From positions 46,314,001-46,378,000 of the forward strand of contig CM114271.1 in the NCBI GenBank assembly GCA_050084515.1: a stretch of DNA of 64,000 nt. Direction: 5' to 3'. A model generated the notes under the pieces. That model saw nothing but the letters and a program-made list of their open reading frames with translations, did no database searches and had not been told where the DNA came from. Of this stretch, positions 1-63,740 are shown piece by piece. This DNA is from Blasia pusilla (Eukaryota). The position numbers and the translations under genes were made by a program. How positions within the stretch are numbered: the first letter of the stretch is position 1; every line of letters begins with the position of its first letter.

Positions 1-700
1 AATCTCTTAGGTGACCTCTCTGCAAGCCATACTTGCGTAAACCCCTCTTCACCGTCTGCACAACTCTCTCCGCTAATCCATCCGCCTCGGGATGATCTCG
101 CGAAGTCATGCGATGGTCGATCAGCGCCTGATCACACAAGGCTTGGAACTCACTTCGAAACTGAATACCCTGGTCTGTCAACACCTCAGCCAGTGCGCCA
201 TAATGACTCATCACTCTATCAAGGAAGGTATAAGCTATTCCCTTACTTGCTTTGTCAGGCAATGCAACCAACTCGATCCACTTCGAGAAGTGCTCGACCA
301 TCACCAACACGACTGTGACGCTCCGTCAAAGGCAAAAGTCCTGCAAAATCTAAACTCCATCTATACCCTAAGCCCATGATCGGTAATGGATGCAACTGTG
401 GAGTTAGAGCATTGAATGATGCTCGGAACCAATCACACACCATGCACATGGCAAAAAACTGGTGAACGTCAGTCTGCATGCCTCGCCACCAAATCTGAAT
501 CTGGAGCAAGCAGTACGTCCGCTTCACCCCAAAGTGACCCAACTCCTCATGGGCATGCTGCACTAGTCGTGCTCTATGCAAAGGATGCGGCACTATGCGT
601 ACTCTTCCATCCTCCCAAACCCTCAAAACATGTGTCCCCTCCCAACGGAACCGTCTGGCCCGCTGTAGGATCCGATTCCGCCACGGTGCTCGCAAGGCTT
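1..700 (-). pseudogene. Integrase N-terminal part (copy A)
   Basis: ORF 255-695 contains HAHEELGHFG...CMVC (HHCC zinc finger) and WSLDFAG; frameshifted downstream. Confidence 0.9.
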
Positions 701-3680: not shown

Positions 3681-3995
3681 ACCACACAATAGGTGTGGTA
3701 TCCAAGGGTGTCATCGTAGCACTCCCTGCTACCTCGGGTTCCTCAGACCCGTCATGCTTTGGTGCAAACGCCTCGCTCCACGTGGTTTGCACGTGCTCAT
3801 CTGCCAATCGTCGAAGCTCCTCAATTGAGCCCCACAGCGGCACCTCTCCTCCACGGAATTATGCGGCTACCATAACACTCCTCTCCATAGAAATGTCAGG
3901 AACGGGAGTATCCTCTGCATGGACATGTCCCTCAATCAAATCACTGCACATGTGAATTGAATGGGTAATGAGCTAAGGCGCCCATCACCTGACTG

Positions 3996-4400: not shown

Positions 4401-5229
4401 AGAAGCCATGGCACGCTCTATCGCGGGTCTAGCAGACATCTCCGCCATCCTAGCAGCCGCAACCTGCCATGAATCTGACATGGACGGCCCGAGGATTCGC
4501 TCCAAGGGCAGGTCCATCACCTCCTCTGCACTCACCTCTGAATGTGATGCAGGAACTCCAACTCCACGCCACATACCGTAGCGGCCAGCCGAAAAGCCTC
4601 GGCGGGCGTACTCCCCAATGTCATAACATCAAAAGCATAAAATAAAGGAGCGCAGTACACCATGGTCGCTGTCCCCAACAACGTGCTCAACACATGCCCC
4701 TCGTGAGCATCAACAATAGGAGTCGTCGCACTCACTTCTCCCATCGCCCTCCGTGCCTGCACACCAACAACGTCACCGACTCTCCAGGAACTCTGATCAT
4801 GACCCATCGATGGGGTCCTCATTGCCTCGGACAACGTGAAAGACTGAGGAAGCCTAGTCTATTTCTTGGCTTCCCCTCGTTGTGGATCCAACTCTGCGGC
4901 TGCTCTACGCGTCACAACTACGGCGGCCTCCATCTGGGCAACCCCGCACATCCAACCTGGATCCTCCATATCTCTAGCTTCTCCATATGATGTCGATGCC
5001 ACGGATCCAACGTTGGGTAATCTCAATGCCATAGCGGCAATCTGCTCTTGTAGTTGATGTATCTGAGCAACCATCGTAGCCTCACGCCCGACATCTCCCT
5101 CGACGCGTCTAGGTGGTAAGACTCTAACTCCTCCATGGGCAGCTCCACCACCCTGTCGGGCAACTCCAGCTCCTCGTCCCCCAACGGGACCACCTGGTGC
5201 ACAATCTCTAGGCCCACCCGGACCGGCTA

Positions 5230-6560: not shown

Positions 6561-7619
6561 CCCTCTCACACGATCTTTCAACCTCGCGAGTAATCCCTCA
6601 ATCACTCATCCCAAACATGCAGCACTCGATCTACACTCTCCCTCCCCGAGATGTGTAACGTGCGGCAACAAGCGGCGTGGTGCGGCGAATTGACCAGACT
6701 ATCATCACATCGACAACCTACCCTCAACTCCGGACATCCCACACAGATCTATGTCCCCTAAACCACATATATAAATGATGCTCTCAACATCCACACACCC
6801 AATATCCCCAAATAAACTACCCAAATCCCAGTATCCCTCACACGTGCAAGATAAAGGACCACAATGGATAACCTGAACACATGTCGATGTCGCTCCTCAG
6901 CAACTGCAAATATCGACCAAAACTCGGTCGTGGAGATAACTCCTCCAATCATCAAGTCAAACTCCTCCCGTACTGACGTTGCTTAAAACTCCTTGATGGA
7001 CAGTGCGGTTCCAGCGGAACGGAACGGCTACGAACGGCATGACCCTCGATGGTGGGATGCGGCACTCGGCGGCATACCCTCCTCAATCAACAATAAACCC
7101 ACACTTTGCTCCACAATGACGGTGCGGTGCGGCCACGAGCGGCAATCCGCGGCGCGTTGCGGCTACGGGCGTCACGGGATAATACTCGATCGTCGTCGAG
7201 CGGCTATCAATCACAATATAGCAGCATGAAATCAAAACTCAAACACCATAACCGGAGGCCATCTACCATCACTGGTTGATGACAAAACTGCGATGACGGT
7301 GGCGGCCAACCAAAATACGTAGTGGCAGCGCAAGTGAGAGGATCAACGGTGGTTGTGGAAGACCCTCCACTTTGTAATGGCGGCAATGGCAACCAAAGGG
7401 TGGACAACGACCGAATGCAGCTGTGAGCAACGCTAGGCAACGGCAATGGCTAACGGTGGCCCGTGGCCGGTGGACCATTGACGGTGATGGTTGACCGTTG
7501 ACTAGTGACGGTGACTATGACGGCGACGGGCGCCGCCGGCGTGGCGGGTGGTTTAGGGTTTGAACAATTTAATCCTAAAAATTGCCTAGCAATGGCAGTT
7601 TTGCAAGATTGACCATAAC

Positions 7620-8562
7620 TAAATGCAACTCCAAATTGCGCACCGTTTGTTGCACATCGTGCACAGCTTCACGATCTACAACAACGTCAAAAAATATTTG
7701 GAATTGGACATTCCAATAAAAACCAAAGGGGATTGTCGTAAAGCCCATTGTCTCTTTCTCCTAGACAAAATTTGGCAGCGCTTCCGCGCTGATTTCTCCC
7801 AACCAAAATGTAAAACCTGTAAAAATACAAACCAGCAAGCTACATGTTGCTCCCGAGAGCACCGGCATGGGGCAACCCGCCCCCATAATCAATTCCTATC
7901 AGAAATTGGGCAGCGCTTCTGCGCGCCACTCTTCCACACGAAAAATCGGCAAATGCAAAGAACAATCAAATCAGCCCTTGCTCCGGTGAGCACTCCCATG
8001 AGCCGGTCAATGGGGAACACGGTCCCCAACCTGCAAAAATAGGGAGTGACCAGCGAGCTCCCCCATGAAGCTCTCTCACTCTCTCTTTGTAAAGTAAGAT
8101 CCAATCTCTCTCTACACCATCTCACACCATAGCTCTCAAAGGTGTGCACTCTCTCTCATGTCAAACCAAACCCACTCTCCTAATGATAGGCTTGGGTTAC
8201 ACTCACAAGGCAAGGGACCATAGCTCCATCGCCTCATGCCAAAAGGTTCAACAAAGAGAGAATGAGCTCTTAAGCTCTCTCTCCTTGAAGTATACCCCTC
8301 CCCTCTCCCAAGCTCTCTCCATGATGTAGGAGGTCAAGGGCCACTTACCAAAAATAGAAAGTTGATCATATATTCAAAATGGTACTTACCTAAAATAATA
8401 AGTTCCTCAATATGGCTTCAAATGAGCCAAAACGAAGGGGAAACCTGCTCTCTCAGGTTTCTCGGGGCCTCAACAGGTCATCCTCGACCTACTGAGTGTG
8501 TCCTCCACTACTCACAAAGGCACTCTACTAGATCTCATAAATATATCCTAAAAGATATGACA
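7620..8562 (-). repeat. 5' LTR-like terminal repeat of copy A (inner boundary uncertain)
   Basis: Homologous to 62670-63623 and, inverted, to 42112-42437. All three begin at the same TGTC terminus, where similarity stops. Confidence 0.8.
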
Positions 8563-11269: not shown

Positions 11270-11346
11270 CGCCCCCCTAGCTAGCAGTTGGATCCTCCTA
11301 ACTCCATATAGAAAATATCACATCTCCCTGACATGACTTACTACCC

Positions 11347-13063
11347 TATACACATCTCGGACATATCCATCATTCTGTAGGAACTACATCAAGAGGGGGG
11401 CTCAGACATGACATATGCCACCCTCGAGAACAACCACACATACCAACATGGTAGCTGAAGTCCTCGCAGATCCGCACAACATATACCTCAAGCATGTAGG
11501 TACCACTGTCAAGCTTGGATCTACTATCCTGTCCATATTTGAAGGGTGACATGGCGTACAATTACGCACATGATCCTTCCAAACCATATGATCCCGTCCC
11601 TCCAATATGAGGACTCTGATCGTAAATACCTCGCGCATAAGTAGGATGTGCGCCCTGCAGTGACATCTAGCGTCGTGGATATCGCATGCTGTAAATACAC
11701 GTAATCTCCAAGATGAAACCTCCTAATCCCTGGACGAAAACCTCCTCCACGAATGGTCGTGTACCTCAATGTATCCCTATGCTGAGTAATAGCTAAGTTC
11801 TCAAAGGCCATGGGCATAACTCTACGAAAAATCTCCGCCCTCTGAGAACACGCTTATACCCACACATCTGGATCATCAAGATCTAACACCTCTGCCATGT
11901 CACGTTGAATAGATGTAGGTAAATCTAGCTCTCTCCCAAAGAGAAAAAAGTAATGTAAAAATGACGCCAAGGATGGATGCTGACTGAAGGGATATCCCAT
12001 AGCCAACCATGGCAACTATAGGTCCCACTCTCTCAACTGTCCCCGGTCCAAGCCATACTTGTGCAATCCTTTCTTCATTGTCTGTACTACTCTCTCCGCT
12101 AACCCATCCACCTCAAGATGATCTCTGGATGTGGTGTGGTGATCCATCACCGCCTGGTCACATAAGGCTTGAAACTCTCCCTTGAACTTGGTACCCTGGT
12201 CAGTCAACACCTCTACCGGTGCATCAAAATCACTTAGCACACGATCTAGAAATGCATAAGCTATTCACTTGTTTTCCTTGTCCAATAGTGCCACCAACTC
12301 TATCCACTTGGAGCAATGCTCCACCATGACCAACACATATCTATAATGACGCCCCCTCAATGGCAAAGGTCCCGCAAAGTCTAAACTCCACCGATAACCT
12401 AAACCCATAATCAGAAAAGGATGTAAGTGCGGAGTGGGAGCATTGAAGGATGCTCGCACTCTATCACATACCATACATCTGGCCACAAAATCCTGTGCGC
12501 CAGTATGCATGCCGCGCCACCAATATTGAACTTGGAGTAAGATGTAACTACACTTTACTCCAAAATGTCCCAACTCCTCATGGGCATGTTATACTACATG
12601 TGTTTGCTGGGAAGGATGAGGTACCACTCGTATCCTACCATCTTCCCATACCCGCAAAATGTGAGTCCACTCCCACCTGAACCTCCTGGCTCTCTGTGGG
12701 ATCCGATCCCGCTCCCTAGCACTCACTGTGCTTGCTATGGCACTAGTACGCAAGAACTCCACAACCTCCACATCGTCATGGATATCACGACCATCTATCA
12801 TCTCCTCATTGACCTACGGATCCAAAGACTCATCATATGATCCCACCATTGGAGTCACCGCCTATGACTCACCTGCCATAGTCAACCAACAAAGATAGGG
12901 AGATGCATGCCAACTGGGCACCATCTCCTCATCACTCTCTCCATGCCATCGAGCTCCTTTGTTCTCTCTCTGACTCGGACATGGGTTACGACTTAACCCA
13001 TCCGCATCCTCGTTCAGCCGACCTGGCTTGTGAACCACGTCGAACTCATACTCTTGTAGTAAG
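11347..13063 (-). pseudogene. Integrase with C-terminal PHD finger (copy B)
   Basis: GHFG...CMVC, WSLDFAGP, VLTDQG, GLAER; then (Y)MLCGS...MLVC/GCSRGWHMSCLSPPLDVVP...WICPRC before the stop. Confidence 0.88.
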
Positions 13064-16000
13064 TATTGAAGATTGAGTTACAGTCAAGCTCATGAGACAC
13101 CTGAACTGCTACATTTGGTACTCACACGAAGTAGGAAAACTTAATCTTGGTTAGTCACTTAAGCGCAATTATCTTAACTAGGGTTAGTTAATCACAATTA
13201 GTCTAACTCGAGACCATGGTTAAGTTGAGGATAAGGGTTGCTTGTACATACCCTATATAATTGAGAAGGAGACCAGCCTCCACTCATTCTCTCATTGCAA
13301 ATTTCGTTCTCTATGGTGGTGTGTGAGTTGTTTCCCACCAGTTATGCTTCCTTAGAAGTTTTCCACATGGTATAAGAGCGATAGGAGAATATCACTTGAA
13401 ATTCTTGGTGTTTGAGGTGAGAAGAGAGGCAAGAGAAGGCACAATTTCAATTTGGGAGAAGGAAATTTTATTCACAGCTCAGTGGATGCAAATTTTAGGT
13501 GGAGCTTTGCCCATGATAAAACTTTGGAGGCGTTTTTTAAGGCTTTCCTGGTTAATTTAGCCATCTGGGTCCGCAACGGCTAGAATGATGCCAAATTTTG
13601 GTTTTAGCCATCTTATAGAACTCATTGAGAAATTTCCAATGCACCAAACTCACTCGATTCTGACATTTTGAGCTCATGCAGTAGCAATTTCAGTGTAGGA
13701 AAGTGCAATTAGTGAAGAAAAGTTGTGTAGTTTGCTCTATACATGCCAATTTCGACTAGTTCTTTCATACAGTTGATCAATTTTGGAAAAATTTAGGTTG
13801 ATTTTTGTGGAGGAGTAATCTATGCTTCAATTGGAGGAGTAGAGAGCCTGAATTTTTTTTTTTGTGAGTAAAATCGTTCGTCATGGAGTATTCCTTAACA
13901 ACAATCACACGCGAGAAGCTAGATAAGCAGAATTACAATGTCTGGAAGTTTCGCATGAAACAATTTCTCATGGGTCAAGAACTATGGGAGCTTGTCATAG
14001 GTGATGAGGCCAAGCCAGAAGGCGACTCAACAGACTTGAATGTTCGCGCATGAAACAAACACGCAAGGCAAGTAATCCACTACATTTCAATAACGATCAG
14101 TTCGCCAATGACATGTCACATTCTAGATATTGATAGTCTGGAGGAGGCTGGGATGCATTGGAAAAGCTATTCCACACATCTACAAAGGCCAGAAAGCTTC
14201 AATTAAATAAAAATTGAACGAAGTGAGTATATTATATTATATTATGAGTATCAGACATATTGTTGATCAGTTGAATAGCATTGGAGTGAGAGTAGAAGAT
14301 GATGATCTGATTTTGTTCACTCTTTAAGGCCTTCCCAAGGATTCCAAGTCCTTTGAGACCTCTATCTCTGTGAGAGAGAAGTATCCAACCTTTCAAGAGT
14401 TAGTCCCACTGTTAATCAGTGAAGAGATGCGCCTAGTAGGCAGCGGTAGCTCGTCTAGTCTGCAAAAGAGCTCTATTTGCATGTTATGGATCAAACAGAC
14501 GCATGGATCTTGGCAAAAGGCTTCCGTGGACATGGTGGATATCAATCATATGGAGGAAGAGGCACTCCATATAACGTCACACAATCAACTACGAACCAAT
14601 ACCAAACACAATCACAATGTGGTGATGGTGGAAACCGTTGGGGTCGAGGTCAATAGTAGAGGACCCTTGATCTTGCAATTACTGTGGGATAAAGGATCAC
14701 TACGCAAATATTTGCTTCAAGAAGAAGGTAGACATGAGAACACGAGCCTTATAGCAACGAAACTATGTGGAGCAACAATACCAAGAGCAGTACCAAGAAC
14801 AACAACATTCACAAACGGAGCATCTCTTGGTTATGACTCATCATATTGGAGCAATGGTCAAGAAAGACTCGACATCAGATTGGTACATTGACTCTGGCGC
14901 TTCAAATCATATGATCTCACAAGCTTAGTGGTTCAGTAGTTTGAAGCCGATGAAAGATCCTGCAATTGTGCTCACATGAGATGACACTCAACATCACATC
15001 ACGCATACGGATAAAGTTCCAATGGCATCATATGGTTTTTGTGCTCTTGGAAATGTTCTCTATGTTCCTACCATTGCAAGAAAGCTGATCTTTGTAGGAC
15101 AGATAGTAGAACAGGGTTGTCAAGTGAAGTTTAACATAGATGGTTATTCATTGAAACAATAACCAAAGGAACTAGATGTGGCAGAATGTTCAAATTAGAT
15201 ATTTCTATGCCAAAGATTCAAACATCTATGTATGGTCAAACCGGCCTACAAGTCACAGATCTAAATGTGTGGCATGAAAGAATTGGACATATGAATCTTC
15301 AAAGATTACAGAGGCTTTCATCATCTAATATAGTAATAGGACTCCCTAAATTAGCGAGTCCTATTACGTTAGAGGTATGTACTACTTGCCAATTTGGAAA
15401 ACAAGCTAGATTTCCTTTTCCAAAGCAAGGTAGAAGAGTTGGAGTTGATCCAGAGTGATGTGTGGACAACCTCACAACATAGCCTTAGTGGTTGGTAGTA
15501 CTTTGTTTCATTTATTGATGACTTCTCTAGTTATATATGGGTATACTTTCTGAAAGCAAACTCAGAGGTATTCTCAGTGTTCCAAACAGTCAGAGTTCCA
15601 GTACAGAAGCAAACTAGAGAACACATTCTGAAATTGTGTTATGATGGAGGAGGAAAGTATCTTTCAACAGAGTTTGATGACTATTTACGTCAGAATGACG
15701 TCCAACGTCAAGTAACTTGTTATTACATTCGATAATAAAATGGAGTGGCTGAGAGGAAGAATCGACCTATTGCTGAAGGGATACAAGTTGTGTTGAATGA
15801 GAAGAACATGCCTAAGGTGTATTGGGCAGAGGCTGTAGCATGTGCAATCTTCTTAATCAAGTGAACTCCAACAACAAGAGTTCATGATAAAAGCCCATTC
15901 GAAGTCTTCACAGGAAGTAAACCTCATTTCTCCTTCTTGAAAGTATTTGGCATTATTTGGTATGCTCATGTTCCTTCTGAGGGACATCAGAAATTAGACC

Positions 16001-24753: not shown

Positions 24754-27921
<3,168 letters not shown>

Positions 27922-28400: not shown

Positions 28401-28940
28401 CACCACCTTTTCTCACCTCCACCCTCACCAAGGGTTCTAAAAAACAGAAAACTTTGCCAAGAGGGGCAACCCAACACTAGGAACACAAAGGAAAAGAAAA
28501 AACTTGAAATGACTACTCCCACATGGATTTAAAAATAATAAACCCCAAAATAGGTGGGGGGAGCATGAAAGATTAAAAAGGAGTCGGAACCGTTGAAGTA
28601 GTGCCAAGAGGTAATCCTCAGGTTCCTCCCAAGTTTGATCCCCATCCAATGGTGGGATGAAAAGATAGCTCCATGTTAACGTGAAATTGACACAAAGACT
28701 TATGACCATCCTACTCAAAGCCTTTCTCCTCCTTGTTGACACCACCTTTTCTCACCTCCACACTCACCAAGGGTTCCACAAAATAGGAAAATTTTCCCAG
28801 AGGGACACCCCAACACCACAAACACATGGAAAAAGAAAAAACTTGAAATGTCAACTCCCACATGGATTTAAAAATCGTAAACCCCAAAGGAGGTTTTTTT
28901 TTTTGAGAGGAGCATGAAGGGTTAAAATGCAGATCGGAAC
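28401..28940. repeat. Direct duplication of about 190 bp, offset about 340 bp
   Basis: CACCACCTTTTCTCACCTCCAC...ACTCCCACATGGATTTAAAAAT occurs at 28401 and 28740. Confidence 0.85.
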
Positions 28941-28979
28941 TAAATGGTAAGAATTGCCATTAATCTCTCCCAAACTGAT

Positions 28980-31900
28980 CTATCCCCCAAAATGCTATCT
29001 TCTTCCTGTCCTCCAACCTGATAGGAAGTTGATGATAGCCACCACGGAGATCTAAGGTACTGAAAATCTTTGCATGCCCTACCGCATCAAAGATCTCCTC
29101 ATGAGTAGGCATGGCATATCAATCTGACCTTCTCTATTGATTGATAGGTTAGTAATCCCCACACATCCGTCTATCCATCCAATTGCCATACATATCCTTC
29201 TTTTCCAACATGACTGTGGCAGATGCATACTCCCCATGCGATAACTCCACAAGTCCTACCTCCAACAAATCCTGACTCCTGCCCCGAATCAAGGCTCGCT
29301 CCATATCAAAATACTTATAGTGTTGACGAAAGATCGGCGTATCACTAGCCAACTCAATCCGTATCCCGAGACCCTTCAGCGTACCTAAGTCTCTCATACT
29401 AAAGGCAAAACAACTTACATTCCCTCTCAAAAACCTATGAACTCACCGTCGCGCTCCTCCTATCAACTTGAGAGTTATCACAGGCTTCCAAGTCCCCATC
29501 GTAACTTCACTCGGAGAGGACGCAACCTTCGGCTTTGGTTGCTATGTAGTAACCCTGGCCATCTCCGCGAAAACCACTCCACTCTGACCTCCTACACCAT
29601 GCTCCACATCCAAAAAATGAACATATGTTGCTATGGCTGCCTTCGCATTCTATGCTCAAACGACGTCCCAGGAAGTCCATGGGTGCCTATCTCTCCTCGT
29701 CCCGCCCCCAGCCAATGCTTGTACAGACCCGGTAGGCAATGCTCCAACTCGTGGACGTGACCGCATGGATGACACTCGCATCTGTCTTTGCTCAGCCATA
29801 CCCAAGCTAACTATCCATGTGAGAAAGTTGAGGTCCATTGCCTGCCCCAATACCTATCTCCATGATACCTCAGTCATACCTGGCACCGTAGTAGAACCTG
29901 TAGCAAACCTCGTTGCACGCTCGCACTCATCTGCCATAGGCTCCTCCAATGCTCGGGTCACCTCATCCCAAATCATGCGTGGCCCTCCGTGGAAAAAGGC
30001 ATGGGATGTTGGGAAGGTGACCAACGTAGGTAAGGCTACCCTCAACTCCCCCACCCTATTGGCTATCGCCAATGATGGTCTATCATCCCGCGTCATCGGC
30101 CATCTGACATCGACGCCCTAAGCCCAAAATAGCATCCACTATGAGATGTGGTGCTCTTTGAACTCTATCGTATGCTCAACTCAGTACCACTGATGGTATC
30201 AGGTTTGTCCACCACATCCGTGGATGATGGGCACGTGAGCCAACTCTCACTGCATCTAACAACACAGCAGGTTCTAACCAAGATCTGATCTGATGCATAC
30301 TCGTCACTACACGTGCAGGAGTGTCTCCCAGCAATGGCACATTCTCCAAAATGTACATCAGGGAACATGTCTCACTCTCATGCAAGTGTTGCACTACTCG
30401 CAACGTCTCCCAAAATATCCTTGATCTGGGATCCTGCAATCCAAACTCTTGGCCAACTCTTGAATGACCATGACATGGCCATCCAAAAATCACCAAATGA
30501 ATGGTGCCAACGTTATCCAGATCGTGCACCCCCACTAAAGAGATATCGGCGGGTAGTGTATGCTGATACCCTTGTATTGGAGCTACCGGCAACAACTTAG
30601 GATACCTCTGGACCAATCTCGCCACGTGGCGTAATGATACTCGCCGCATGGTCTCATCTCTCTCTACATAAAGGTATTGATGCACACGAATACCCTCCTG
30701 CAACACCGCAGCTAATCCGGTGCTAATCCCTCCGAAGAGATCTAACACCCTAATCCCCTCCTCTAGACACTACCACACAACGGGTGTGGTATCCAATGGT
30801 GTGAACGTCTCCACTCCATGAGCCCGATCGCCACTTGAATCTTGCTACTTCGGGATAAAGGCATGACTCCATGCCTATCTCACGAGGTCGTCGGCACTCC
30901 TCTGTAGCTCTCGAGTCGTACCCCACAATGGTGAAGAGGTCTCGCCAACATGGGAAGAGACACCTCCCATGGCATGTCTCTTCATGGGACTATCCGCTAC
31001 TGGGACATCCTTTGCATGTGCGTTCCCCTCCAACAACTCTCTTGGCCAGCTAACACTACCTGTGAAAGCTGCCAATGTGGTCACAGACTCATCGCGTGGT
31101 CGAACACCATCGCGTTGCGGCAAACTCTACGGGTAACTGACTCATCCTCCCATCACGTGACCACCACCCTGGCCGATAAGCAACGGTTTCTCCCATAAGT
31201 CAAGGATGAATCCTAGAGGATATAGCTCTACACTCCCCACCAACACATCGTTTGACTCAGCTGGTGTTGTAATCGCACGTGTGCATACCATAGCACTATC
31301 CGTCGCATGCTATGGCTAGACTCTGAAAACTATCTCTTTTTTAGTCATATACTGCGTGCGTGATACGCCCCCAATCAAGGTCTGTATCTGGAAGGGAGAA
31401 GGCTCAATGTCGGCCTTCCGTAACCCCAACGCTAAACACGCCGCCTTCCCTAACATCAAGGGTTGCGCTCCTGAATCAAGTAGGATGCGATGCGGGTGGT
31501 ACATTGTCCCAGTCGGACTAACCAAGTGAAAAACTCAAGCTCAGTTATCCAATAACACCATGCCAGGTGTCACCACGGCTTGCTCTATGGTCGATCGAGA
31601 TGCCATGACTCTGTGGGGAATGTCCTGAGCACTTGCTCTGAGGGCAAGTCCACCACCTCCCCCAACTACCTTTGAATGAGAGGCACTCACCACTCCATGC
31701 TCATACAACATGGCGGCCAACCGGAACACCTTAGTTGGTCCAACTCCCAATATCACGAACTCTATGGCAGAAAATAACAGAGCCTGGCTCACCTTGGTGG
31801 CCACCTCCAACACTGTGGTCGACACTTACTCCACTCAAGCCAGTACATGAGCTGCCACTCCAACTCCTCAAAATGTCGAGGCACCTGCGTGACTAGTAGG

Positions 31901-35233: not shown

Positions 35234-38127
35234 TATTGAAGATTGAGTTACAATCAAAGCTCATGAGATACCTGAACTCCTACATTTGGTACTCACACGA
35301 AGTAGGGGAGCTTAATCTTGGTTAGTCAGTTAAGCGCGATTATCTTAACTAGGGTTAGTTAATCACAATTAGTCTAACTCGACACTAAGATTAGGATTAG
35401 GGTTTCTTGTAGATATCCTATATAATTGAGAAGGGGATCAGCCTCCACTCATTCTCTCATTGCAACTTTTGTTCTCTATGGTGATGTGTGTGTGTGAGAG
35501 CCGTTTTCCACCAGTTATGCTTGTTAAGCAGTTTTCCACATGATATCAGAGGTATAGGAGAACATCACTTGAAATTCTTGGTGTTTGAGGAGAGAAGAGA
35601 GGCAAGAGAAGGAAAAAATTCAGTTTGGAAGAAGGAAGTTTTATTCAGAGCTCAGTCGGTATAGATTTCATGTGGAGCTTTGACGGTGATAAAACTTTGG
35701 AGGCATTTTTTAAGGCATTCTCGGTCAATTAAGCCGTTGGATCCATAGCGGCTAGAATGACACCATAATGTGGTTCTATTCTTATTGAAGAGCCCGTTGA
35801 GAGCTTTCCAATGCATCCAAAATTGCTCAATTCTGACTTTCAGAGCTTTTGCAGTAGCAATTTCAGTGTAGGAAAGTGCAATTAGTGAAGAAAAGTTGTG
35901 CAGTTCGCTCTCTACAGGCCAATTTCGACTAGTTCTTTCATACACTTGATCAATTTTGGAAAATTTCAGGTCAATTTCTGTGTTGGAGTAGTCTATGCTT
36001 CAATTAGAGCAGTAGAAAGCCTGAAATTATGTTTTTGTGAATGAAATCGTTCGTCATGGAGTATTCCTCCACAGTAATCACAGGCGAGAAGCTAGATAAG
36101 CAGAATCACAATGTCTTGAAGTTTCGCATGCATGAAAAAATTATGGGTCAAGAACTATGGGAGCTTGTCACAGGTGATGAGGCCAAGCCAGAGGGCGACT
36201 CAATAGACTTGAATATTCGCGCCTGGAACAAACGCGCAAGGCAAGTAATTCACTACATTTCAATAACGATCAGTTCGCCAATGATAGGTCACATTCAAGA
36301 TGTTGATATTCCGAAGGAGGCCTGGGATGCATTGGAAAAGATATTCCAGACATCTATAAAGGCCACAAAGCTTCAATTGAAACAACAATTGAACGAAGTG
36401 AGGAAAGGATCGTAGAGCATCAATGATTATATTTTGAGTATCAGACATATTGTTGATCAGTTGAATAGCATTGGAGTAACAGTAGAAGATGATGATCTTA
36501 TTCTATTCATTCTTCAAGGCCTTCCAAAGGATTACAAGCCCTTTGAGATCTCTATCTCTGTGAGAGAGAAGTATCCAACCTTTCAAGAGTTAGTACTAAT
36601 GTTAATCAGTGAAGAGATGCGCCTAGTAGGCAGCCGTAGCTCGTCTAGTTTGTAAGAGAGTGTGCTATTCGCACGTTATGGATCAAACAGATGCAGCGGT
36701 AGCTCGTCTAGTGTGCAAGAGAGTGCATTATTTGCAGGTTATGGATCAAAAAGAGGCAAGGGTCGTGGCAGAAACTTCCGTGATCGTGGTGGATATCAAG
36801 CATATGGAAGAAGAGGCACTCAATATAACATCATACAATCAACTACGAACGAGTACCAGACACAATCATAAGTTGGTGATGGTGGAAACCGTTGGGATCA
36901 ATGTCAGCAGTAGAGGGTCCGTGGATCTTGCAATTACTGTGGGATAAAGGGTCATTTTGCAAAGTTTTGCTTCAAGAAGAAGGCATATATGAGAACAGGA
37001 GCTTACAGCAACAAAACTATGTGGAGCAACAACACCAAGAGCAGTACCAAGAATAACAACATTCACAAATGGAGCATCTCTTGGTTATGACTCATCATAT
37101 GGGAGCAATGGTCAAGAAAGACTCGACAACAGATTGGTATATTAACTCTGGTGCATCAAATCAGATGACCTCACAAGCTAAATGGTTCAGTAGTTTGGAA
37201 CCGGTGAAAGATCTTGCAATTGTGCTCACAGGAGATGATACTCAACATCATATCACGCATACCGGTAAAGTTCCAATAGCATAAGATGGTCTTTGTGCTT
37301 TTGGAAATGTTCTCTATGTTCCTACCATTGTAAGAAACCTTATTTCTGTAGGACAGATAGTAGAACAAGGTTATCAAGTGAAGTTTAGCATAAATGGTTC
37401 TTTCATTGAATCAATGGATGACCAAACTACGACAGCCAAAGGAACTAGATCTGGAAGAATGTTCAAATTAGATGTTTCTATGCCAGAAATTCAAACATCA
37501 ATGTATGGTCAAATCGGCCAACAAATCACAGATCTAAATGTGTGGCATAAAAGAATTGGACATATGAATCTTCAAATATTATAGAGTCTTTCATCATCTA
37601 ATACAGTAATAGGACTCCTTAAATTAGCGAGTCCTGCTACATTAGAGGTATGTCTTGCTTGCCAATTTGGAAAACAAGCTAGATTTCCTTTTCCAAAGCA
37701 AGGTAGAAGAGCATCCAGGATATTGGAGTTGATTCACAGTGATGTATGGACAGCATCACAACATAGCCTTAGTGGTTGCCAATACTTTCTTTCATTTATT
37801 GATGACTTCTCTAGGTATATATGGATATACTTTCTGAAACCAAACTGAGAGGTATTCTTAGTGTTCCAAACATTCAGAGTTCTAGTAGAGAAGCAAACCG
37901 GAGAACACATTCTGAAATTGCATTGTGATGGAGGAGGAGAGTATCTTTCAACAGAGTTGGATGATTATTTACGTCAGAATGGCATCCAACGTCAAATGAA
38001 TTTCCGTTACATTCCAGAACAAAATGGAGTGGCTGAGAGGAAGAATCGACATATTGCTGAAGCGTCACGAGCTATGCTAAATGAGAAGAACATGCTTAAG
38101 GTCTATTGGATAGAGGTTGTAGCATGT
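35234..38127 (+). mobile_element. Second copy of the same Ty1/Copia family, 3'-truncated within integrase
   Basis: LTR 35234-35540 matches 13064-13367; PBS-like TGATATCAGAG; gag 36041-37060 with a CNYCGIKGH knuckle; WYINSGAS; QNGVAERKNR. Confidence 0.94.
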
Positions 38128-38393
38128 CCAATATTGTTATGTATTCCCTAACAATGGGTGTAGGTTCGGAAAAAGGATCTTAGAGTGTTTAGGTGGGCTA
38201 AGAGGATGGGTTATTTAATGCCCTTTTTTTCTCTTCTCATTCAAAATTTTTTCCAAAAATTTGCCGTTGGCAAAGAAAAATGAAGGAAAACAACGGTTGG
38301 AGAGTGCAGTCCAACGGAAAGTTGAATTGTTGTGTTCAGGAAGGTTGAATTGTTCCTAAAAAAGGAATCTATAGATTCTCTTTTTATTGAAAT

Positions 38394-40869: not shown

Positions 40870-42437
40870 ACAGTGAGGGAGTAGCATATGCCTTCCTAGA
40901 TCGAGTGTTGAGTCATTATGGCGCACCAACTGAGGGTGTTGACAGACCAGGATACGGAGTTTATCCGGGGAGTTTCAGGCCTTGTCTGATCAGGCGCTAA
41001 TTGATCATCGCACCACTTCGCAAGATCATCCTAAGGGGGATGGACTAGCGGAGAGGGTTACGCAAACGGTGAAGTGAGGTTTATGCAAGTATGGCTTATA
41101 TAGAGGTCACATAGATAATTGGGACCTCCAATTTCCGTGGCTGGAGATGGGATATAGATTCCTCAAGAAGATATCCTTAGCATCTTTCTCACCGTACTTG
41201 TTGCTTTATGGCCAACGGTCAGATTTACCTACAGCCATTTGTCGAGATGTTGGTGAGGTGTTGAAGCTCGATGACCTTGATGTACGGATACGAGCATGTT
41301 CTCAGAGGACTGAGTTGTTTTGAAGAGTGATGCCCATGGTGTTTGAGAACTTGGCGATTGAGCAGCTTGGGGTACGATGAGGTATGCGACTATTTAGGGA
41401 GGTGTTTACATAACGACTATCCAAAGGTTTCATCAGGGAGACTATGTCTACTTACAGCATATGGCACCCACAATGTTGGATGTGACTGCAAGGCCCACTA
41501 TCTTGAGAGTGAGTGAGGTTTTGTCATCTTGTGTTCTCTTATTGGAGGGACACGATGGTATGATTAGGAAGAACCGTGTGCGTAACTGTGCGTCATATCA
41601 CCTTCCTAACATTGAAGATACAGTTCATCCGAGCTTAGTAGGACTTCTTGTAGGCTGACATTGTCTGTTGTGCGGTTCTGCACGTGATACAACCACTATG
41701 CTAGTCTGTGATGGATATTCGAGAGGATGGCATATGGCATGTCTGACGTCACCTCTCACTAGGGCTCTTCGAGGACGATGTATGTGCCCCAAATGTATGT
41801 ATAGTAGGTAGTTATAGATTTCGACTTGTTTTTATGGCATCGATGATAAGAAGGCGAATAACAATGGGGCCACATGAGCACCCAACTTTTTTTCTCTTAG
41901 TGTTCTAGAGATGTATGTTATGAGAGGTAGGGATAGATGGCTATCCGACGTTAGAGGGACCTAACCACCAGCTAGGGAGTGATTGGAGATAATTTGGTAT
42001 TTCTCGTCTCGATGTTTGGATGTCATGAGCTATCATGGGATCGTGCATGTTTGTGTGTGTGTTAGGTGACAATAATGTATGTTGTGTAGCGATGTGTATG
42101 TGCACGATAATTGTCTCATCTTTTATGATAGAACGACGAGATCTAATAGAGAGCCTTCATAGGTTGTGAAGGAAAGCCTCAAGATGTCGAGGATGACATG
42201 TTGAGGCCACGGGTAACCTAAGAGAGTAGGTTTTCCCTTCTTTTTGGCTCATTTGGAGCCATCTAGATAAACTTACTATTTTGAGAAAATTCCCATTTTG
42301 AGTATAATTGACTTTCTATTTTTATAAATGGCCCTTGACCTCCTACAATGGGTCAAGAGCCAAGGAGGTGACCCGGAACCATGGGTTATCGTGAAGAGAG
42401 CTTGGAAAAGGGAAGGGGATATACTTCCAAGAGATAG
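40870..42437 (+). mobile_element. DNMT-Gypsy family 3' fragment (copy D): integrase core, PHD finger, 3' UTR, partial LTR
   Basis: VLTDQD...GLAER; CLLCGSARDTTTMLVCDGYSRGWHMACLTSPL...CMCPKC at 41662-41800; 42112-42437 is the reverse complement of about 8280-8562. Confidence 0.88.
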
Positions 42438-43560
42438 ATGGATGAGTATGTCATCATCTATATTGATGACAAATTAATCTACTTAAAGCCACTAAATGAG
42501 CATGCTCGACACTTGGAGGCGGATTTGTCAACACTTTGTGCGAACAAGTTGTATGGAAATGAGGAGAAGGGTGAATTTAGCTTAAGCAAGATTAAATTCT
42601 TGGGTCATCTGATTAGTGTAGATGAAATCACCGTTATTTGGGGTTTCATCATACTTGGGTGTACATTGGTAAAATATCACTCAAGTATTTTGAGATGCAT
42701 AATTGTGTTACAGCAAAACAACTATGATGATATGATACCTTTGCGTTTATGAACGTGGAACTAATGAACAAGATCGGGAAAGATAATTTCATACTGAACG
42801 CCTTGAGTCACAAGGATAAATATATGCAATTGACTACACAAGTCTTGAGAGTCATATTTCTCAAAGAAAAATATATGGACAAAAGGATTTGTGAGGGGTA
42901 CATGAAGGACGCCCAAGTTGATGAGTACTTAAGGAGGTTGAGGGAGGGTAAGAAGGTAGCCAACATAAGCTTGAGGCATGGTTTGCTAAGGTTAAAGCAA
43001 AGTTGAAGTTATCTTGGTGAGGGTAAGTTTCAGACTAAGGTATTTATAGAGTGTCATGACATGCCCTTGGTTGGAAATAAAGGGGAGAAATCCATACGTG
43101 TTATTTTGGCCAAGATGCTCTTCAAGCCCAACATGAAGGAAGATGTTGCCCATCTTGTGGAGACTTGTGTTACCTGCCAAGGAAACATGGTTTCTTATGA
43201 GAAGAAATGAGGCTTCCCTTAATCATTACCAATTCCAGAAGGGCCATTGCAAAGAATAAGCATGGATTTCATAACAAGTCTTCGAGAGTCTAAGGGACAC
43301 AATGCCATACTTGTGATTGTCGATTAGTTTGGAAAGTTGGCGAGACTACTACCTACTTTGGATTCTACGACCGCCTATGCAACCTCTCGACTTTTCCTAT
43401 ACACTTGGTGGGAATCACATGGCTTACCAACGAGCATTATTTCTAATCGAGTGCATGAGTGCATTGCGGAAACAATAGGCTAAGGACGAAGTTGAGCTTT
43501 AGTAGCTTTTCATCCTTGAACACACAGAGCGAGGAAACTCAATCGTGAACCAATACCCAT
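42438..43560 (+). pseudogene. pol fragments of an unrelated chromovirus-type Ty3/Gypsy element
   Basis: VIIYIDDKLIY, KFLGH, GKDNFILNALS, LPIPEGPLQRISMDFITSL...AILVIVD. Confidence 0.8.
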
Positions 43561-45222: not shown

Positions 45223-46862
45223 CTAAGAGGCGGTTTCTTTCTTAGCAGCTTCCTCAAATGTTTCACCCTCAACAAGTTGAGGAACGTCATCATCTTCATC
45301 CTCTGCGCCTGCAGTGTCCTGCCTCTGAAACTGCTGTGCAATCTTCTTCAGGTTGGGAAGGTTGTCTGGGCCTGCCAAGAGTAAGAGCACCTCAAGGTGA
45401 GATAGCTAAACTTATGGAAAATATCAACGTCCAGAAGACCAACGAGATCTCAAGTTAAACGACCCAATGCTGTGCAAGAAAAAGGGAGAAACCTACCGAG
45501 CTGGTTGATAATGCCCGGCAAGAGGTCTTGCAACTCTGTAACACATACCAAACACCCATTCAAATATCACTCAGCTTCAAGTTCACATAGCCAAAAACCA
45601 CCCCGTAAGATAACATCGCCACCTTCAGAAGAGGTGAGACTAACATCTTGAGCTCCAAGGGATGTAAACTCCGACGAAAAACCAAGAAAGCCCTAGTGCT
45701 TTCCAAAACCCTAAACTATACGAAGTGGAATGATATCATATTCGCCAAGAGGACCCAACTTAAAAGAGCGACACATGGCAATGACCGCTTCACAGGACAC
45801 ATATCGAAGAACTCAAAATTCCGTTGAAAAGGGAATTGGAGAAAGGCCGCGTATCATGTCATATTCATGCAAGCTTGAGAGTTCAGAACATACTTTTAGA
45901 TTGTGAGGGGCCGCTGACAACCCACGTATTAGCAGCAATGGACGCTTGCACTGTAGAGTAGAAAATTACAGGTCAGCACGGTAGGGAGGAGGTTGACGAT
46001 ACCAAATCATGTGTGCAACAGTGAAAAATATCAGAATTGGATTTTCTTCAAAACTCGAGCCGTTTACTTCAACACTCCGTATTTTGCATTAGACACTGTT
46101 AACCTTGTACACATGCTTCCCAAAAATTACATGGTTCCAGTGTTGCTCGAGAGATAGCAAGAGACCCCATCCAGGGTCGAACGGACTACACAAGGAGACG
46201 TGACTCAGTTGCGACGAATCCCAACCTCCTTCGCCCGCGAAAGAGTGATCTTCCTAAGATGGGTAAAGATCGAAGCCCAAACATGCGAATCTTATAATCT
46301 CTGGAAGTGGAAAAGGAGTACAGCACCTTTGGGATTCACGAAGTGAATGACGGTCTCGTCTTTAAAGATGTTAACCTCCTCAATACCGGGGATGGTGTTC
46401 ACACCAAGTCTCTTGAGGGTATTTTGTAACCTCTTGTCGTCTGTAGTTGTAGTCTTGTGCACGGCTTTTTTCTTTCTGGTAAGATAGAATAAATGCAGAA
46501 TAGGGGTGAGCTCAACCTGATCATCTGCTAGGGTTTTGAAAAGCCTAAGACGGATCCTATATTTCCTGCACGACCCCTAAACTGAAAACTCTTTACTCTC
46601 AGCTCAAGTTGCCTCACGGATTGACGGAAATTGTCCGAAAATACGTTGTTGTAAGGACAAAATTTCCGGCATTGCAACGACCAGTTCTCTCCTACCAGCT
46701 AAATTCCTCAGCAGATTATTAGGTTACCATGGAAAGGGATGCGTGATCGATGAGCCCTATAACCTTCAGGAAATCAAAAAATGGCGACACTCACCGTCGG
46801 ACACTGCCCTTCCCACCAGTGCGAACGGCACTGGCCATCTTCTGCAGCTTCTCGATATTCAT
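45223..46862 (-). CDS. BTF3: Nascent polypeptide-associated complex beta subunit / basic transcription factor 3, 153 aa, 5 coding exons
   Basis: Exons 46862-46795, 46475-46327, 45950-45894, 45535-45497 and 45371-45223, all GT-AG and in frame (462 nt): [30 protein letters not shown]...[10 protein letters not shown]...[14 protein letters not shown]...[14 protein letters not shown]...[17 protein letters not shown]. Confidence 0.97.
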
Positions 46863-53084: not shown

Positions 53085-56000
53085 CATGGGAATCTTGGTG
53101 TATTTGCAAAACATCCTAAGAAGTCCAAGGGTGTCTCTCCCGATCATCCGTGGTGTATCAATCTCCTTAGTTCTCATCCCCAACCACTGCCTCAACCGTC
53201 TCAAGAGGCATGGGGCTCACCAACGCAGATAATAATGTAATCCTGAAACGACGTTCCTGAAAGCGCTTCAAGTCCATTGTTGACCTAAGATAGCCATGAT
53301 GCCTTTGAGAGGGAGAGCTGAAAATCTCCCATCGTCGCTCTCGCTCATCACGTTAGGCTCCACTGCTATTCCCAAAGTCCATTGCCTCCTTGAATGCAAA
53401 GGAAGCGGGAAAACTCACCAATGTGGGAAAGGCTTCTCGTGGCATGCCAATCCTATTGACCACAGCCAACGACGGTCGATCATCGTGCCTCATTTCCTGT
53501 GATTGACGGCCCGGATTCAATATGGAATCCACCAACAAATCATAGGGGCGCTCCACTCTCGCATACACCCTCCGCAATAACTCATGTGGCACCAAGTTGG
53601 TCCGAGTAAAAACGCGGGCGATGTGCTCGTGTTCCACACTCTCCGCATCCAACCACACTACTGGGTCGATCCATGCACATCTCTGTTGTGCACTCGTCAC
53701 CACGCGAGACCGTGAATCGCCCAAAATCGGCACATTCTCCATAATGTATGGTGGAGAAAGAGATTGATCCTCCTGCAAGGCTCACAAAATTTGTATAATC
53801 TCCTTAAACAACCTGGACCGAGAGTCAACTAACCCGCTACCTCGTCCAACATTCCATTGGCCCTGACACGGCCAACCAGCAATGACCAAGTCTATGGTCC
53901 CTACCCGCTCCAAGTCCTGCGCCCCCAACAATGAAATGTCCCTCGGTAGGGAACTCTGGTAACCCTGGATGGCAAACGCAAACAACAAGTTGGGAAAGCT
54001 TTGGCATAACTGCGCCACATGGTGAAGTGAAGCGCGCCTCGCAACATCATCAACCTCCACATACATGTACTGTTGCACGCCCAATCCTCCATCCAAAACA
54101 ACAGCTAAGCCAGTGTTGATCCCTCCAAAGAGATGTAGCAGACGAATACCCTCCTTTGGGATGCACCACACAATCGAGGTGGTGTCCAAAGGGGTCATAG
54201 TAGCACTCATGGCTACCTCGGGTTCCTCTGATCCGTCACGCTCTAATGCAAATATCTCACTCCATGCCGTTTGCACATGCTCGGCCGCTAAGCGTTGAAG
54301 CTCCTTTATCGAGCCCCAAAGTGGCACCTCTCCTCCACGGAATGATTTGGCTACCATGACACTCCTCTCCATACAAATATCAGGGACAGAAGTATCCTCT
54401 GAATGCACATGTCCTCAATCAAATCACTAGGCCAGTGAGGACGCTGCTAAGGCTTCCATCTCTCCTGGCCTTCGCTCGATCACTCCACCGATGAATCGAA
54501 CGGGTAATGAGCTAAGGCGCCCATCACCTGACTACCATTCTAGTCTGTAGGACGTTGACTCCTCCTAGTAATCTAGGGAAAACCCTATCGGGTACAACAC
54601 TGCTCCACCAACCAAGACGTCGTAGGACTCTTCATCAGTCACTATCACCTTGGCTCGCACCATAGACTCATATGTAGGATGTCTTGGGCAAATCCTCACC
54701 ATGACCTCCTATCGGGTGATATACTACGTGGTAATCGCTCCATCCAAGGATGTCTGTACCCGAAATGGGCAATGCTCCACATCTGCTCTCGTCAAGCCTA
54801 ATCCTCTAAATGGCTGCTTTCCCCAACATCAGCGGTTACGCTCCTGAATCCAACAAGACGCGATGCAAACTAAAAACTCTACCTCTTGGACTCACCAACT
54901 GGAAGAGCTCTCCCTCGGTTATCTAGCAACACAACACCAGGAGAAGCCATGGCACGCTCTATCGCGGGTCTAGCGGGCATCTCCACCATCCTAGCAGCCG
55001 CAACCTACCATGAATTTGACGTGGACAGCCCGAGCATAGGCTCCAAGGGTAGGTCCATCACCTCCTTTGTAATCACCTCAGAACATTATACAAGAACTCC
55101 AACTCCACGCTCTCATAGCGTAGTGGCCAACCATAAAACCTCGGCGGGCGTACCTCCCAATGTAATAATATCGAAAGTAGAAAACAAAGGAGTACGGTAC
55201 ACAATGGTGGCCGCCCCCAACATTAATGTGCTCGACACATGCCCCTCATGAGCATCAGCAATATGAGTCGTCCCACTTTCTTCTCCCATCACCTTCTGTG
55301 CCTGCACACCAACAACATCACCAACCCTATGAGAACTCTAATCATAACCCATTGATGGGGTCCTCATCGCCTTAGACAACATGAAAGATAGAGGAAGCCT
55401 GAGGTGTTTCCTGGCTTCCCCTTGGTGTGGATCCAACTCGGTGACTTCTCCACGTGTAACAATTGCGGCGGCCTCCATTTGGGGACCCCGCATATCCAAC
55501 CAAGATCCTCCATATCTTTGGCTGCTCCATATAACATTGATACCACCGATCCGACATCGGATAACCTCAGTGTCATAGCGGCAATCTGATGTTGTGGTTG
55601 CTGTATCTGAACAACCCTCCCAGCCTCACGCCCGACGTCTCCCTCAACACATCTATATGGTGGAACTCTACCTCTTCCACGGGAAACTCCACCACCCCCT
55701 CTGATAACTCCAGCTCCTTGTCCCCCAACAGGACCACCTGGTGCACGACCTCTAGGCCCACCCGGACCAGCAACTTGCTTTGGCGCCCTCTCTAGCCCTC
55801 GGTCCGGACATAACTCAAGGTGCAAGCTGAAATACCTAGCGCGTGTGTGACCGTACCTTTGATAATAGTTACATAGATAACCTCTTCATGTAGCACCATC
55901 TCCTCCTCCATGCTGAGGCACGCGTTTATGCCCCTGACGAGTGAAATCGCCTTGATGATGGGCTCCACCACATGACCTACAAGAAATCGTAGACGGCTGC

Positions 56001-62325: not shown

Positions 62326-62669
62326 TGTAGTCGTTATATCGGAGAGAGCGGCGGATGGACGAAGTAGGGGGGGGGGGACCTACTGCATTCGACTTTGACT
62401 CAAATATTTCCCCTCAAATTGGGCTCCGCCCTCCTCAACTGGGTTAGCCATAAATTTGGCTGACATATCCCTCAACAACTGGGTCAACTTCTCCCTAAAA
62501 TACATTTCCACCATATTTCTCCTTAAAATCACAAGTCCCCTTATCCTATCCACCAGAAGAAAAATATTTTTTTTCTACCACTGAAGAATTTACTGACGAT
62601 TTTCCAATTTCACTCCCATCTTGGAACGATGGCTATGGCAGCCACACAAGAATGATCATAACTCCATGC

Positions 62670-63623
62670 TCCAATCTCCAAATTGCACATTGTTTCTTCT
62701 ACGGTGTACACAACTTTTTGATCTACAAACTTATCAAATTGGTTTTTCCATTCAACCTTCCAATAAAAATTGAAGGGGATTGTTGTGCAGCCTAACGTCT
62801 CTTCTCCTACACAAAAATTGGTAGCGCTTCCGCGCTGATTTCTCCCAACAAAATTTTAAAACCTATGCACATATAAACCATAAAGCTACACGATACTCCG
62901 GAGAGCACTAGCATGGGGCAACCAGCCCTCATACTCAATCCCTATCAAAAATTGGGATGCGCTTTCGCGCGCCACTCTTCCACACGAAAAAATGGCAAAG
63001 GAAACATCAAAAGTGAGCGGCTCTTGGTCCGGTGAGCACTCCCATGAACTGTTGAATGGGAAATATAATCCCCAACCATAAAAACAAGCAAGTGACTAGC
63101 AAGCTCCCCCATTAAGCGCTCTCACTCACTCATTCTCTCTTTGTAAAATAAGATCCAATCTCTCTCAACACCATAACTCTCAAATGTGTGCACTATCTCT
63201 CATGTCAAACCAAACCCAGTCTCCTAATGAGAGGCTTGGATTACACTCACAAGGCAAGGGACCACAGCTCCTCCGCCTCGTGCCAAGAGCTTCAACAAAG
63301 AGAGAATGAGCTCTCTCTCTCTCTCTCTCTCAAGCTCTCTCCTCGATAACCTATGCTCGTAGGTCACCTCCTTGGCTCTTGACCTGCTATAGCGGTCAAG
63401 GGCCATTTCCCAAAGTGGAAATCCAACTATACTCTAATAAGAAACTTACCCAAAATAGTGAGCTTCTCTATATGGCTCCAAATGAGCCGAAACGAAGCGA
63501 AAACTTGCTCTCGCAAGTTACCCATGGCCTCAGCAGGTCATCCTCGATCTCTTGAGGCTATCCTCCACAATCCCCGAAGGCGCGCTACTAGATCTTGTCG
63601 ATCTATCCTAAATGATCGTGACA
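62670..63623 (-). repeat. LTR-like repeat of the DNMT-Gypsy family
   Basis: Aligns by eye with 7620-8562 and ends at the same TGACA terminus. Confidence 0.85.
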
Positions 63624-63740
63624 ATGGTTTACGTGGGAGGAGACACATTATTACGAGTTTGGGAGGATGATAGAGTATGTGTGGTGTCTCATCCTTTATA
63701 GAAAGTATAATTGATGCAACATAACCAAAAGGAGTTAACT
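63624..63740 (+). pseudogene. Short integrase N-terminal fragment of the DNMT-Gypsy family
   Basis: Reads (with a frameshift) FTW...LLRVWEDDRVCVVSHPL...LMQHNQKEL, compared with RFRWEGTHVLRVWEDGRVRIVPHPL...LVQHAHEEL in copy A. Confidence 0.7.

Follow-up and report, generated by a model that had tools for sequence, protein, structure and literature searches.

Copy A and the PHD finger that ends its integrase

The window analysed here is a 64,000-nucleotide stretch of Blasia pusilla (contig CM114271.1 of assembly GCA_050084515.1, positions 46,314,001 to 46,378,000 of the forward strand). Its feature of interest is a short Cys- and His-rich segment at window positions 41662–41796, which follows the remains of a Ty3/gypsy-type integrase in a retrotransposon fragment designated copy A. 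The plus-strand frame 41659–41811 encodes 50 residues and closes with the TAG stop that ends the Pol polyprotein (41809–41811), four codons past the last Cys of the segment. Residues 2–46 of this translation, i.e., nucleotides 41662–41796, match the PHD finger family PF00628 over its full profile (1–47 of 47) with an E value of 2.2e-6 and 28 bits, against the curated Pfam gathering cut-off of 24 bits. The zinc ligands follow the pattern C-x2-C-x11-C-x2-Y-x4-H-x2-C-x14-C-x2-C, which is that of a C4HC3 PHD with Tyr (TAT, 41716–41718) in place of ligand 4, the other seven of the eight ligands being kept. In addition, a Cys (41779–41781) replaces the conserved Trp that precedes the last Cys pair. 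PF00628 is the sole Pfam family matched by 41659–41811, and the chromodomain family PF00385 has no match in copy A, so that reading the segment as a chromodomain was rejected.

The PHDs of 115 database relatives were combined in a profile, which, run over the six frames of the window, gives copy A 57.1 bits (E 3.6e-19). It finds just two sites, 41653–41805 on the plus strand and 11343–11509 on the minus strand, and since both directly follow an integrase C-terminal domain, the Cys/His pattern is not a product of chance. When the 115 relatives and copy A are aligned, the eight ligand columns are occupied by the expected residue in 113/115, 113/115, 116/116, 114/116, 116/116 (His), 116/116, 113/114, and 104/114 sequences, and the Trp before the last Cys pair is kept in 105/115. 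Copy A is one of the two exceptions in the column of ligand 4, and with seven ligands where its relatives have all eight it is a decayed member of the PHD family. Window 41662–41796 is thus, with high confidence, the decayed C-terminal PHD finger of a Ty3/gypsy-type Pol polyprotein. An earlier sequence-only reading of this DNA had placed the motif at these coordinates and recognised the C4HC3 spacing with its Tyr, correctly on both counts.

Copy A extends from about 40872 to 42404. In it, the integrase core and an SH3-like domain come before the PHD, which a spacer of about 300 bases separates from a terminal repeat of 295 bases. Homology to the family starts in the segment 40872–41113 (plus strand, blastn), which is 81.6% identical to the integrase of element 1 (window 247..8), one of three methyltransferase-bearing elements of the window described below. 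A remnant of the integrase catalytic core lies at 40955–41320 (plus strand; tblastn, 54.9% to the core of the database relative P0007), in a frame that differs from that of the domain after it. The C-terminal SH3-like domain occupies an 86-residue open frame at 41398–41655 (plus strand), in which 41401–41637 aligns by tblastn with residues 906–985 of P0007; the domain is 61.6% identical to P0002. The frame of the PHD continues this open reading frame (ORF) save for an in-frame TGA between the two domains (41656–41658, plus strand), a break through which the relatives P0002-P0010 read. The terminal repeat (42110–42404, plus strand) corresponds to the 5′ extremity of elements 1 and 2, with 79.5% identity to 8562..8325 and 79.1% to 63625..63331, respectively.

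As family homology begins only at about 40872, copy A is a dead, 5′-truncated 3′ fragment. This status, the TGA, the Trp to Cys replacement, and the displaced frame of the core were missed or understated in the sequence-only reading. Its proposal that the finger is fused to the integrase C terminus, at the place of the chromodomain of chromoviruses, agrees with the SH3-like domain found directly before the PHD, as well as with the relative P0102, in which a PHD is followed by a chromodomain.

A second decayed copy, B, lies on the minus strand (12588..11340) and is 68.7% identical to copy A over 943 bases, in an alignment that runs through the finger. The PHD of copy B (11343–11509, minus strand) scores 36.5 + 5.4 bits with the family profile, in two frames. 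It is damaged by a one-base deletion, a TGA, and a Tyr at ligand 1, and it retains both the ligand 4 Cys lost in copy A and the Trp before the last Cys pair. Upstream, within 11546–13053 on the same strand, tblastn identifies an SH3-like domain (11546–11745), the core (11824–12354), a zinc-binding ORF (12265–12588), and the end of RNase H (12916–13053). Over 1009 bases of RNase H and integrase, copy B and element 1 share 73.2% nucleotide identity.

Elements and relatives with a DNA methyltransferase

Three other members of the family in the window, all on the minus strand, carry a C5 DNA methyltransferase (DNMT) domain inside the Pol region. Element 1, with a whole extent of 2–8562, is contiguous over 2–3672, where Pfam (RVT_1, RT_RNaseH, Integrase_H2C2) and tblastn place DNMT (2718–3672), reverse transcriptase (RT, 1437–2156), RNase H (868–1227), a zinc-binding integrase ORF (258–722), and the integrase core (2–325). 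Its 5′ terminal region (7604–8562) is shared with element 2 (62647–63616, blastn), and the outer 238 bases recur in the repeat after copy A. Element 3 includes DNMT (29788–30769) and the start of RT (28939–29280), with ORF 30179–30769 matching PF00145 with E 2e-7 and the remainder located by tblastn within 28939–30769. In element 2, the DNMT domain (53383–54156) matches PF00145 with E 2e-4 and 21.3 bits, just below the cut-off of 22, and is found by tblastn with 50–53% identity. All 29 of the 29 solved structures matched by ORF 30179–30769 are of DNMT3A/B/C (best E 1.8e-9), and judged by these matches the methyltransferase of the window is of DNMT3 type.

The Ty3/gypsy Pol order of RT, RNase H, and integrase (H2C2 zinc domain and rve core) is found in element 1 and in the proteins P0007, P0020, and P0038, and copy A keeps only the integrase part of it. 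All RT-containing fragments of the family in the window, i.e., elements 1, 2, and 3, adjoin a DNMT. By blastn, the identity between copy A and element 1 is 81.6% over 244 bases of integrase and 79.5% over 239 bases of the terminal repeat, and the DNMT-bearing elements differ mutually (65.9% between elements 1 and 3, 74–86% between elements 1 and 2) as much as, or more than, copies A and B differ from element 1. The best database match of both the RNase H (82.7%) and the integrase zinc domain (69.9%) of element 1 is P0038, which by Pfam consists of RNase H, integrase, and PHD. Within the window, the sequences thus suggest a link between PHD and DNMT that is indirect yet consistent, no single copy spanning both domains.

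Further evidence comes from protein relatives. A search with the integrase–PHD piece of copy A, with X at the stop, returned nine proteins, some of them named as proteins of the liverworts Calypogeia fissa and Marchantia polymorpha, of which nine of nine match PF00628 and six of nine are listed with an integrase core. P0007 and P0116 served as further queries, the window DNMT ORF was the query of a full HMMER scan, and the domains of the resulting set of 359 proteins were mapped by phmmer. The PHD was detected in 118 of the 133 database proteins with an integrase SH3-like domain; it is present in 55 of the 64 that have DNMT, integrase core, and SH3-like domain, and in 63 of the 69 with an SH3-like domain in which DNMT was undetected. 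In two relatives, P0020 (1516 residues) and P0052 (1783 residues, with a protease), one ORF encodes everything from DNMT to PHD, and the PHD is the last part of the protein. The finger is likewise terminal in P0038 (681–725 of 728 residues), and in P0020 it occupies residues 1470–1513. The DNMT region of P0020 and P0052 matches PF00145 alone, with no ADD or PWWP family.

Among the Marchantia gene models, many end just past the DNMT (e.g., P0277); DNMT and RT may lie in separate ORFs in many copies, or gene calling may have produced an artefact. P0005 (Marchantia polymorpha MARPO_0060s0038) is a chimeric model: a piece of the element DNMT comes after the end of an integrase and most of a PHD, and two adjacent fragments of elements were probably joined in it. 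Among liverwort gene models, those that carry the annotation PHD or DNA methylase are flagged as fragments of transposons.

Metagenome loci give a similar picture. A scan with P0020 alone found no relative; for a scan with an alignment (A2), the best 80 of 571 loci were analysed, which come from few projects and are not independent, and 38 of them are informative on both sides of Pol. DNMT is located upstream of RT in 36 of these 38, and all 36 DNMT-bearing loci have a PHD or its remnant, identified in 20 by tblastn or a regular expression and in 16 decayed cases by the family profile, run on translations read through with X (E 9e-20 to 6.5e-7 among 48 frames). Locus L002 is contiguous from DNMT to PHD and ranks in the top four for 9 of 11 window pieces (elements 1–3, copies A and B), the exceptions being two ORFs of the DNMT N-terminal half; direct repeats were not found in L002. 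Six loci (L009, L013, L025, L033, L036, and L040) share a layout in which a repeat A (~290 bases) precedes the coding region and the series B (~165–200 bases)–A–B follows it, with the first B starting about 70 bases past the PHD. In the window, the repeat that corresponds to A is the 295-base one about 300 bases after the PHD of copy A; no second B was found downstream of it, where an RT fragment of another element begins.

The sequence-only reading had attributed to the element of copy A both a chromatin reader and a writer of DNA methylation. For the family, this attribution is borne out by the 55 of 64 proteins and the 36 of 36 loci described above. It does not extend to copy A itself, which is truncated and lacks a DNMT region, so that PHD and DNMT are linked only at the level of the family. 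It is very probable that the family has the order DNMT3-type methyltransferase, RT, RNase H, integrase, and PHD, and that it belongs to the streptophyte Gypsy-DNMT3 kind.

More widely, a Ty3/gypsy lineage found in liverworts, streptophyte algae, and chlorophytes has the finger as its C-terminal module. Relationships within it were traced with FastTree on RT, RNase H, and the integrase core (127 rows), which gives a quick tree without an outgroup test. Nearly all PHD-bearing proteins fall into one group (106 rows, support 92). A single clade in this group (46 rows, support 98) unites the proteins whose DNMT follows RNase H and precedes integrase. Proteins in which DNMT comes ahead of RT, as it does in the window, are scattered through the rest of the PHD group, and P0007 with its liverwort-like kin groups with P0020 (11 rows, support 99). 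DNMT precedes RT in six proteins (P0020, P0052, P0075, P0113, P0128, and P0314) and lies between RNase H and integrase in at least 38, including P0054-P0102 and P0127 of Haematococcus lacustris; either one capture followed by relocation or two captures would account for the two positions. With phmmer and Pfam PF00145, no DNMT was detected in the PHD-bearing P0060, P0096, P0094 (Klebsormidium nitens), and P0059, in which 611, 458, 294, and 350 residues, respectively, precede RT and may still include a very divergent domain. The PHD thus appears to span a wider clade than DNMT and not to be specific to DNMT-bearing elements. The branching suggests that the PHD came first and DNMT later, an order that is only likely, since the tree is a quick one.

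Two relatives depart from the common architecture. In P0102, RT, RNase H, DNMT, and integrase are followed by a PHD (1426–1470) and, 25 residues further on, by a chromodomain (1495–1544), which places two histone readers and one methylation writer in one protein. P0125 is a gypsy polyprotein with a protease, a Dam adenine methyltransferase (363–468), RT, and RNase H, and its PHD (1083–1127) precedes the integrase zinc domain rather than following the integrase.

Type of reader and its possible role

The type of the finger was assessed with the last 62 residues of P0007, which represent an intact PHD of the family, as the query against solved structures, and 60 of the 90 matches were listed. 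The best matches are CHD4 (E 7e-20) and the second PHD of DPF3 (E 8e-15), and others are PHF12, KMT2C/D, DPF2, KDM5A/B, ATXR5, PHF21A, KAT6A/B, WSTF, BAZ2A/B, UHRF1, and AIRE; no chain of ING, BPTF, TAF3, or PYGO is found among the best 60 of the 90. These matches uphold the likeness to readers of the histone H3 tail that had been noticed in the sequence-only reading. In PHDs that read methylated K4, a Trp of the binding cage is positioned two residues before the zinc-binding His, whereas PHDs of the CHD4, DPF3, KDM5, PHF21A, and AIRE type read the N terminus of H3 with unmethylated K4. In the family (n = 116), the position two residues before the His is occupied by Gly in 104 sequences, copy A among them, by Ala in nine, Pro in two, and Thr in one, and by an aromatic residue in none; the residue directly before the His is aromatic in 107 of 116. 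The host PHDs of CHD4, DPF3, KDM5A/B, PHF21A, and AIRE share with the family the C4HC3 spacing and this adjacent aromatic residue, although they belong to cellular regulators, and orthology is not claimed. These features suggest a preference for unmethylated K4, which we hold to be possible and a little short of probable.

In active copies, the PHD would stay attached to the integrase and tether the integration complex to nucleosomes through the N-terminal tail of histone H3, as the chromodomain does in chromoviruses. Such tethering seems somewhat probable by analogy, because chromoviruses, too, bear a histone reader at the end of the integrase and are considered to find heterochromatin by it (Gao et al. 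2008, as cited in PMC6673714). The likely target would be an H3 tail without trimethylated K4, and avoidance of K4me3 tails would steer insertions away from active promoters. Separately, the DNMT3 module would methylate the DNA of the element; for the DNMT3 of the K. nitens element, de novo CG methylation in yeast assays is described in PMC5890265.

Taken as a whole, the best explanation, that of a relic PHD of a family of the Gypsy-DNMT3 kind with a role in tethering to the H3 tail, is probable, and several observations weigh against it. The left edge of the window cuts element 1 inside the integrase core, before any PHD. Neither copy A nor copy B has an RT or DNMT region, so that the descent of either from a DNMT-bearing copy is presumptive. 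No PHD was detected in nine of the 64 proteins with DNMT and integrase. Of six such proteins inspected, four (P0058, P0087, P0239, and P0267) end before or inside the finger, P0036 has a divergent Cys/His-rich tail, and the tail of P0168 is unrelated. The C-terminal half of DNMT occurs in none of the 45 gene models that run from RT to PHD and leave their upstream content open, most of which start too near RT to tell (1–458 residues before it, 43 of the 45 within 300). Among the 38 informative metagenome loci, two, L014 (with RT truncated at its 5′ side) and L016, have a PHD and no DNMT, and an intact ORF from DNMT to PHD was found in none of the best 80 of 571. Finally, about 1300 residues, with RT, RNase H, and integrase among them, separate PHD from DNMT, an architecture that implies no direct cooperation.

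The absence of anything upstream of RNase H or integrase in copies A and B would also fit their origin in a DNMT-less sister subfamily of the PHD–integrase clade, in whose source element reader and writer never stood together, and P0060, P0096, P0094, and P0059 provide PHD-bearing members with no detectable DNMT. Such an origin is nevertheless quite improbable, given the identity of copy A to the DNMT-bearing element 1 in both integrase and terminal repeat, the DNMT adjoining every RT-containing family fragment of the window, and the DNMT in 36 of 38 informative loci of the closest outside clade. A different function for the finger is conceivable as well: instead of guiding integration, it could regulate or place the DNMT of the element in the manner of an ADD domain, or act on local chromatin after integration. 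The ADD domain of host DNMT3 enzymes senses unmethylated H3K4, and the DNMT region of P0020 and P0052 has neither ADD nor PWWP, while the closest solved PHDs come from proteins known as readers of the H3 N terminus. We consider this function unlikely, as the finger is fused to the integrase end, far from DNMT, in both domain orders. Members in which no DNMT is detected have it too, as does the Dam-carrying P0125, where it lies elsewhere in the protein, and its presence is therefore independent of DNMT. In addition, the role for which chromoviruses set a precedent, with a reader in this place, is the targeting of integration (Gao et al. 2008, as cited in PMC6673714). In turn, the short length of the segment (45 residues) and its broken ligand might point to a chance motif, or to an exon of a host PHD gene beside the transposon. 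This possibility is negligible and was rejected, with the Pfam score above the cut-off and a finger after the integrase recurring in copy B, in 118 of 133 proteins, and in metagenome loci.

Returning to the reading of the finger as a histone reader that guides integration, we can speculate about its wider history. The PHD-ended integrase might mark an old clade of gypsy elements in the green lineage, from chlorophytes to liverworts, as a PHD counterpart of the chromoviruses. Such elements would have taken up DNMT3 at two places of Pol, before RT and in the gap between RNase H and integrase, and in some cases would have added a chromodomain. The PHD would steer copies to chromatin lacking H3K4 methylation, where DNMT would mark them, and the captures would have been independent, favoured by the reader already in place. 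This scenario is doubtful; if true, it would offer a natural series of self-contained reader–writer elements.

Known systems and the surroundings of the copies

The nearest described system is KnitGypsy-Dnmt3, of the streptophyte Gypsy-DNMT3 kind (de Mendoza et al. 2018, PMC5890265), which according to the text of that paper shares with the window family a Ty3/gypsy Pol with a DNMT3-type methyltransferase upstream of RT. The kind was first described there in Klebsormidium nitens and is also named in bioRxiv 10.64898/2026.05.21.726589. The K. nitens protein P0058 has the order DNMT–RT–RNase H–integrase, as in element 1, and its gene model stops inside the integrase SH3-like domain, before the position of the PHD. 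The legend to Fig. 4c of PMC5890265 gives KnitGypsy-Dnmt3 a DIRS-like A…B-A-B layout, and the six metagenome relatives have the same layout, which suggests that they, and by kinship the window family, are of the same kind. Among relatives with a name, those nearest to the window copy are proteins of liverworts and not of Klebsormidium. The word PHD does not occur in the text and legends of PMC5890265, the figures and supplements of which may still show one, and in a literature search that covered text, with figures and supplements outside it, nothing was found that expressly assigns a PHD to Gypsy-DNMT3 elements.

Chromoviruses likewise have a histone-reader module on the integrase C terminus, as outlined in the text of PMC3350952, and their chromodomain is assumed, and in the case of MAGGY has been shown, to guide integration according to chromatin state (PMC3350952; Gao et al. 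2008 as cited in PMC6673714). The module differs, being a chromodomain in chromoviruses and a PHD zinc finger in the window family, with both present in the relative P0102. A PHD as an accessory domain is also a property of REM1 of Chlamydomonas reinhardtii and of other retrotransposons (PMC6673714, PMC8557442). The text of PMC8557442 calls it a common accessory domain in C. reinhardtii, and through these two papers the observation is credited to Kapitonov and Jurka 2003 and Perez-Alegre et al. 2005. Unlike the window family, REM1 is mentioned in the available text of PMC6673714 and PMC8557442 without a DNMT. In a survey (10.1101/2021.11.30.470311), PHD and Chromo rank first among reader domains in the frequency of fusion to transposon domains. 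EpiLTRs (bioRxiv 10.64898/2026.05.21.726589) are also long terminal repeat (LTR) retrotransposons that join chromatin reader and DNA methyltransferase modules; in these elements, known from Cymbomonas and Euglena, a chromodomain is paired with Dam and a DNMT4-related DNMT at the 3′ end of pol, whereas the window family has a PHD reader and a DNMT3-type writer upstream of RT.

Since Gypsy-DNMT3 elements and PHD fingers of retrotransposons are both already in print, the combination of PHD and DNMT is less new than the sequence-only reading implied. That reading had allowed for a lack of any PHD match, or for PHD-bearing integrases restricted to elements without DNMT; what was found is a family that pairs the PHD with a DNMT3-type methyltransferase. 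The detail added here is that a conserved histone-reader finger appears to be a constant feature of the Gypsy-DNMT3 lineage, in essentially every member that reaches the end of the integrase. The window itself is of little import, its finger being a relic in a nest of dead transposons. By their sequences, Gypsy-DNMT3 elements, known for their methylation writer, would also end in a histone-reader finger. This would make them a simple experimental system, and it opens the question of whether transposons pair the choice of site with self-methylation.

Copy A has remains of other elements around it, and CpG observed/expected is about 0.4–0.7 in this part of the window. A truncated copia element with gag (36041–36412, PF14223) and integrase (37849–38148) lies upstream, and an RT fragment of another element (42438–42749) lies downstream. 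Directly upstream of copy A, the plus-strand segment 38689–39988 has three open frames of 82–159 residues with no Pfam match at E 0.01. The copia-type elements 13064–15855 and 35234–38139 are 86% identical to each other, and each adjoins one integrase–PHD fragment, in opposite relative orientation. Near element 3, minus-strand open frames of 147–203 residues at 25577–27414 resemble, by eye, a non-LTR (LINE-type) reverse transcriptase, and a long GA/TC dinucleotide run at about 24800–24950 is visible as RE and SL repeats in the translations. A 94-residue minus-strand frame at 46292–46576 resembles an exon of the beta subunit of the nascent-polypeptide-associated complex (BTF3), and may be part of a host gene between the transposons.

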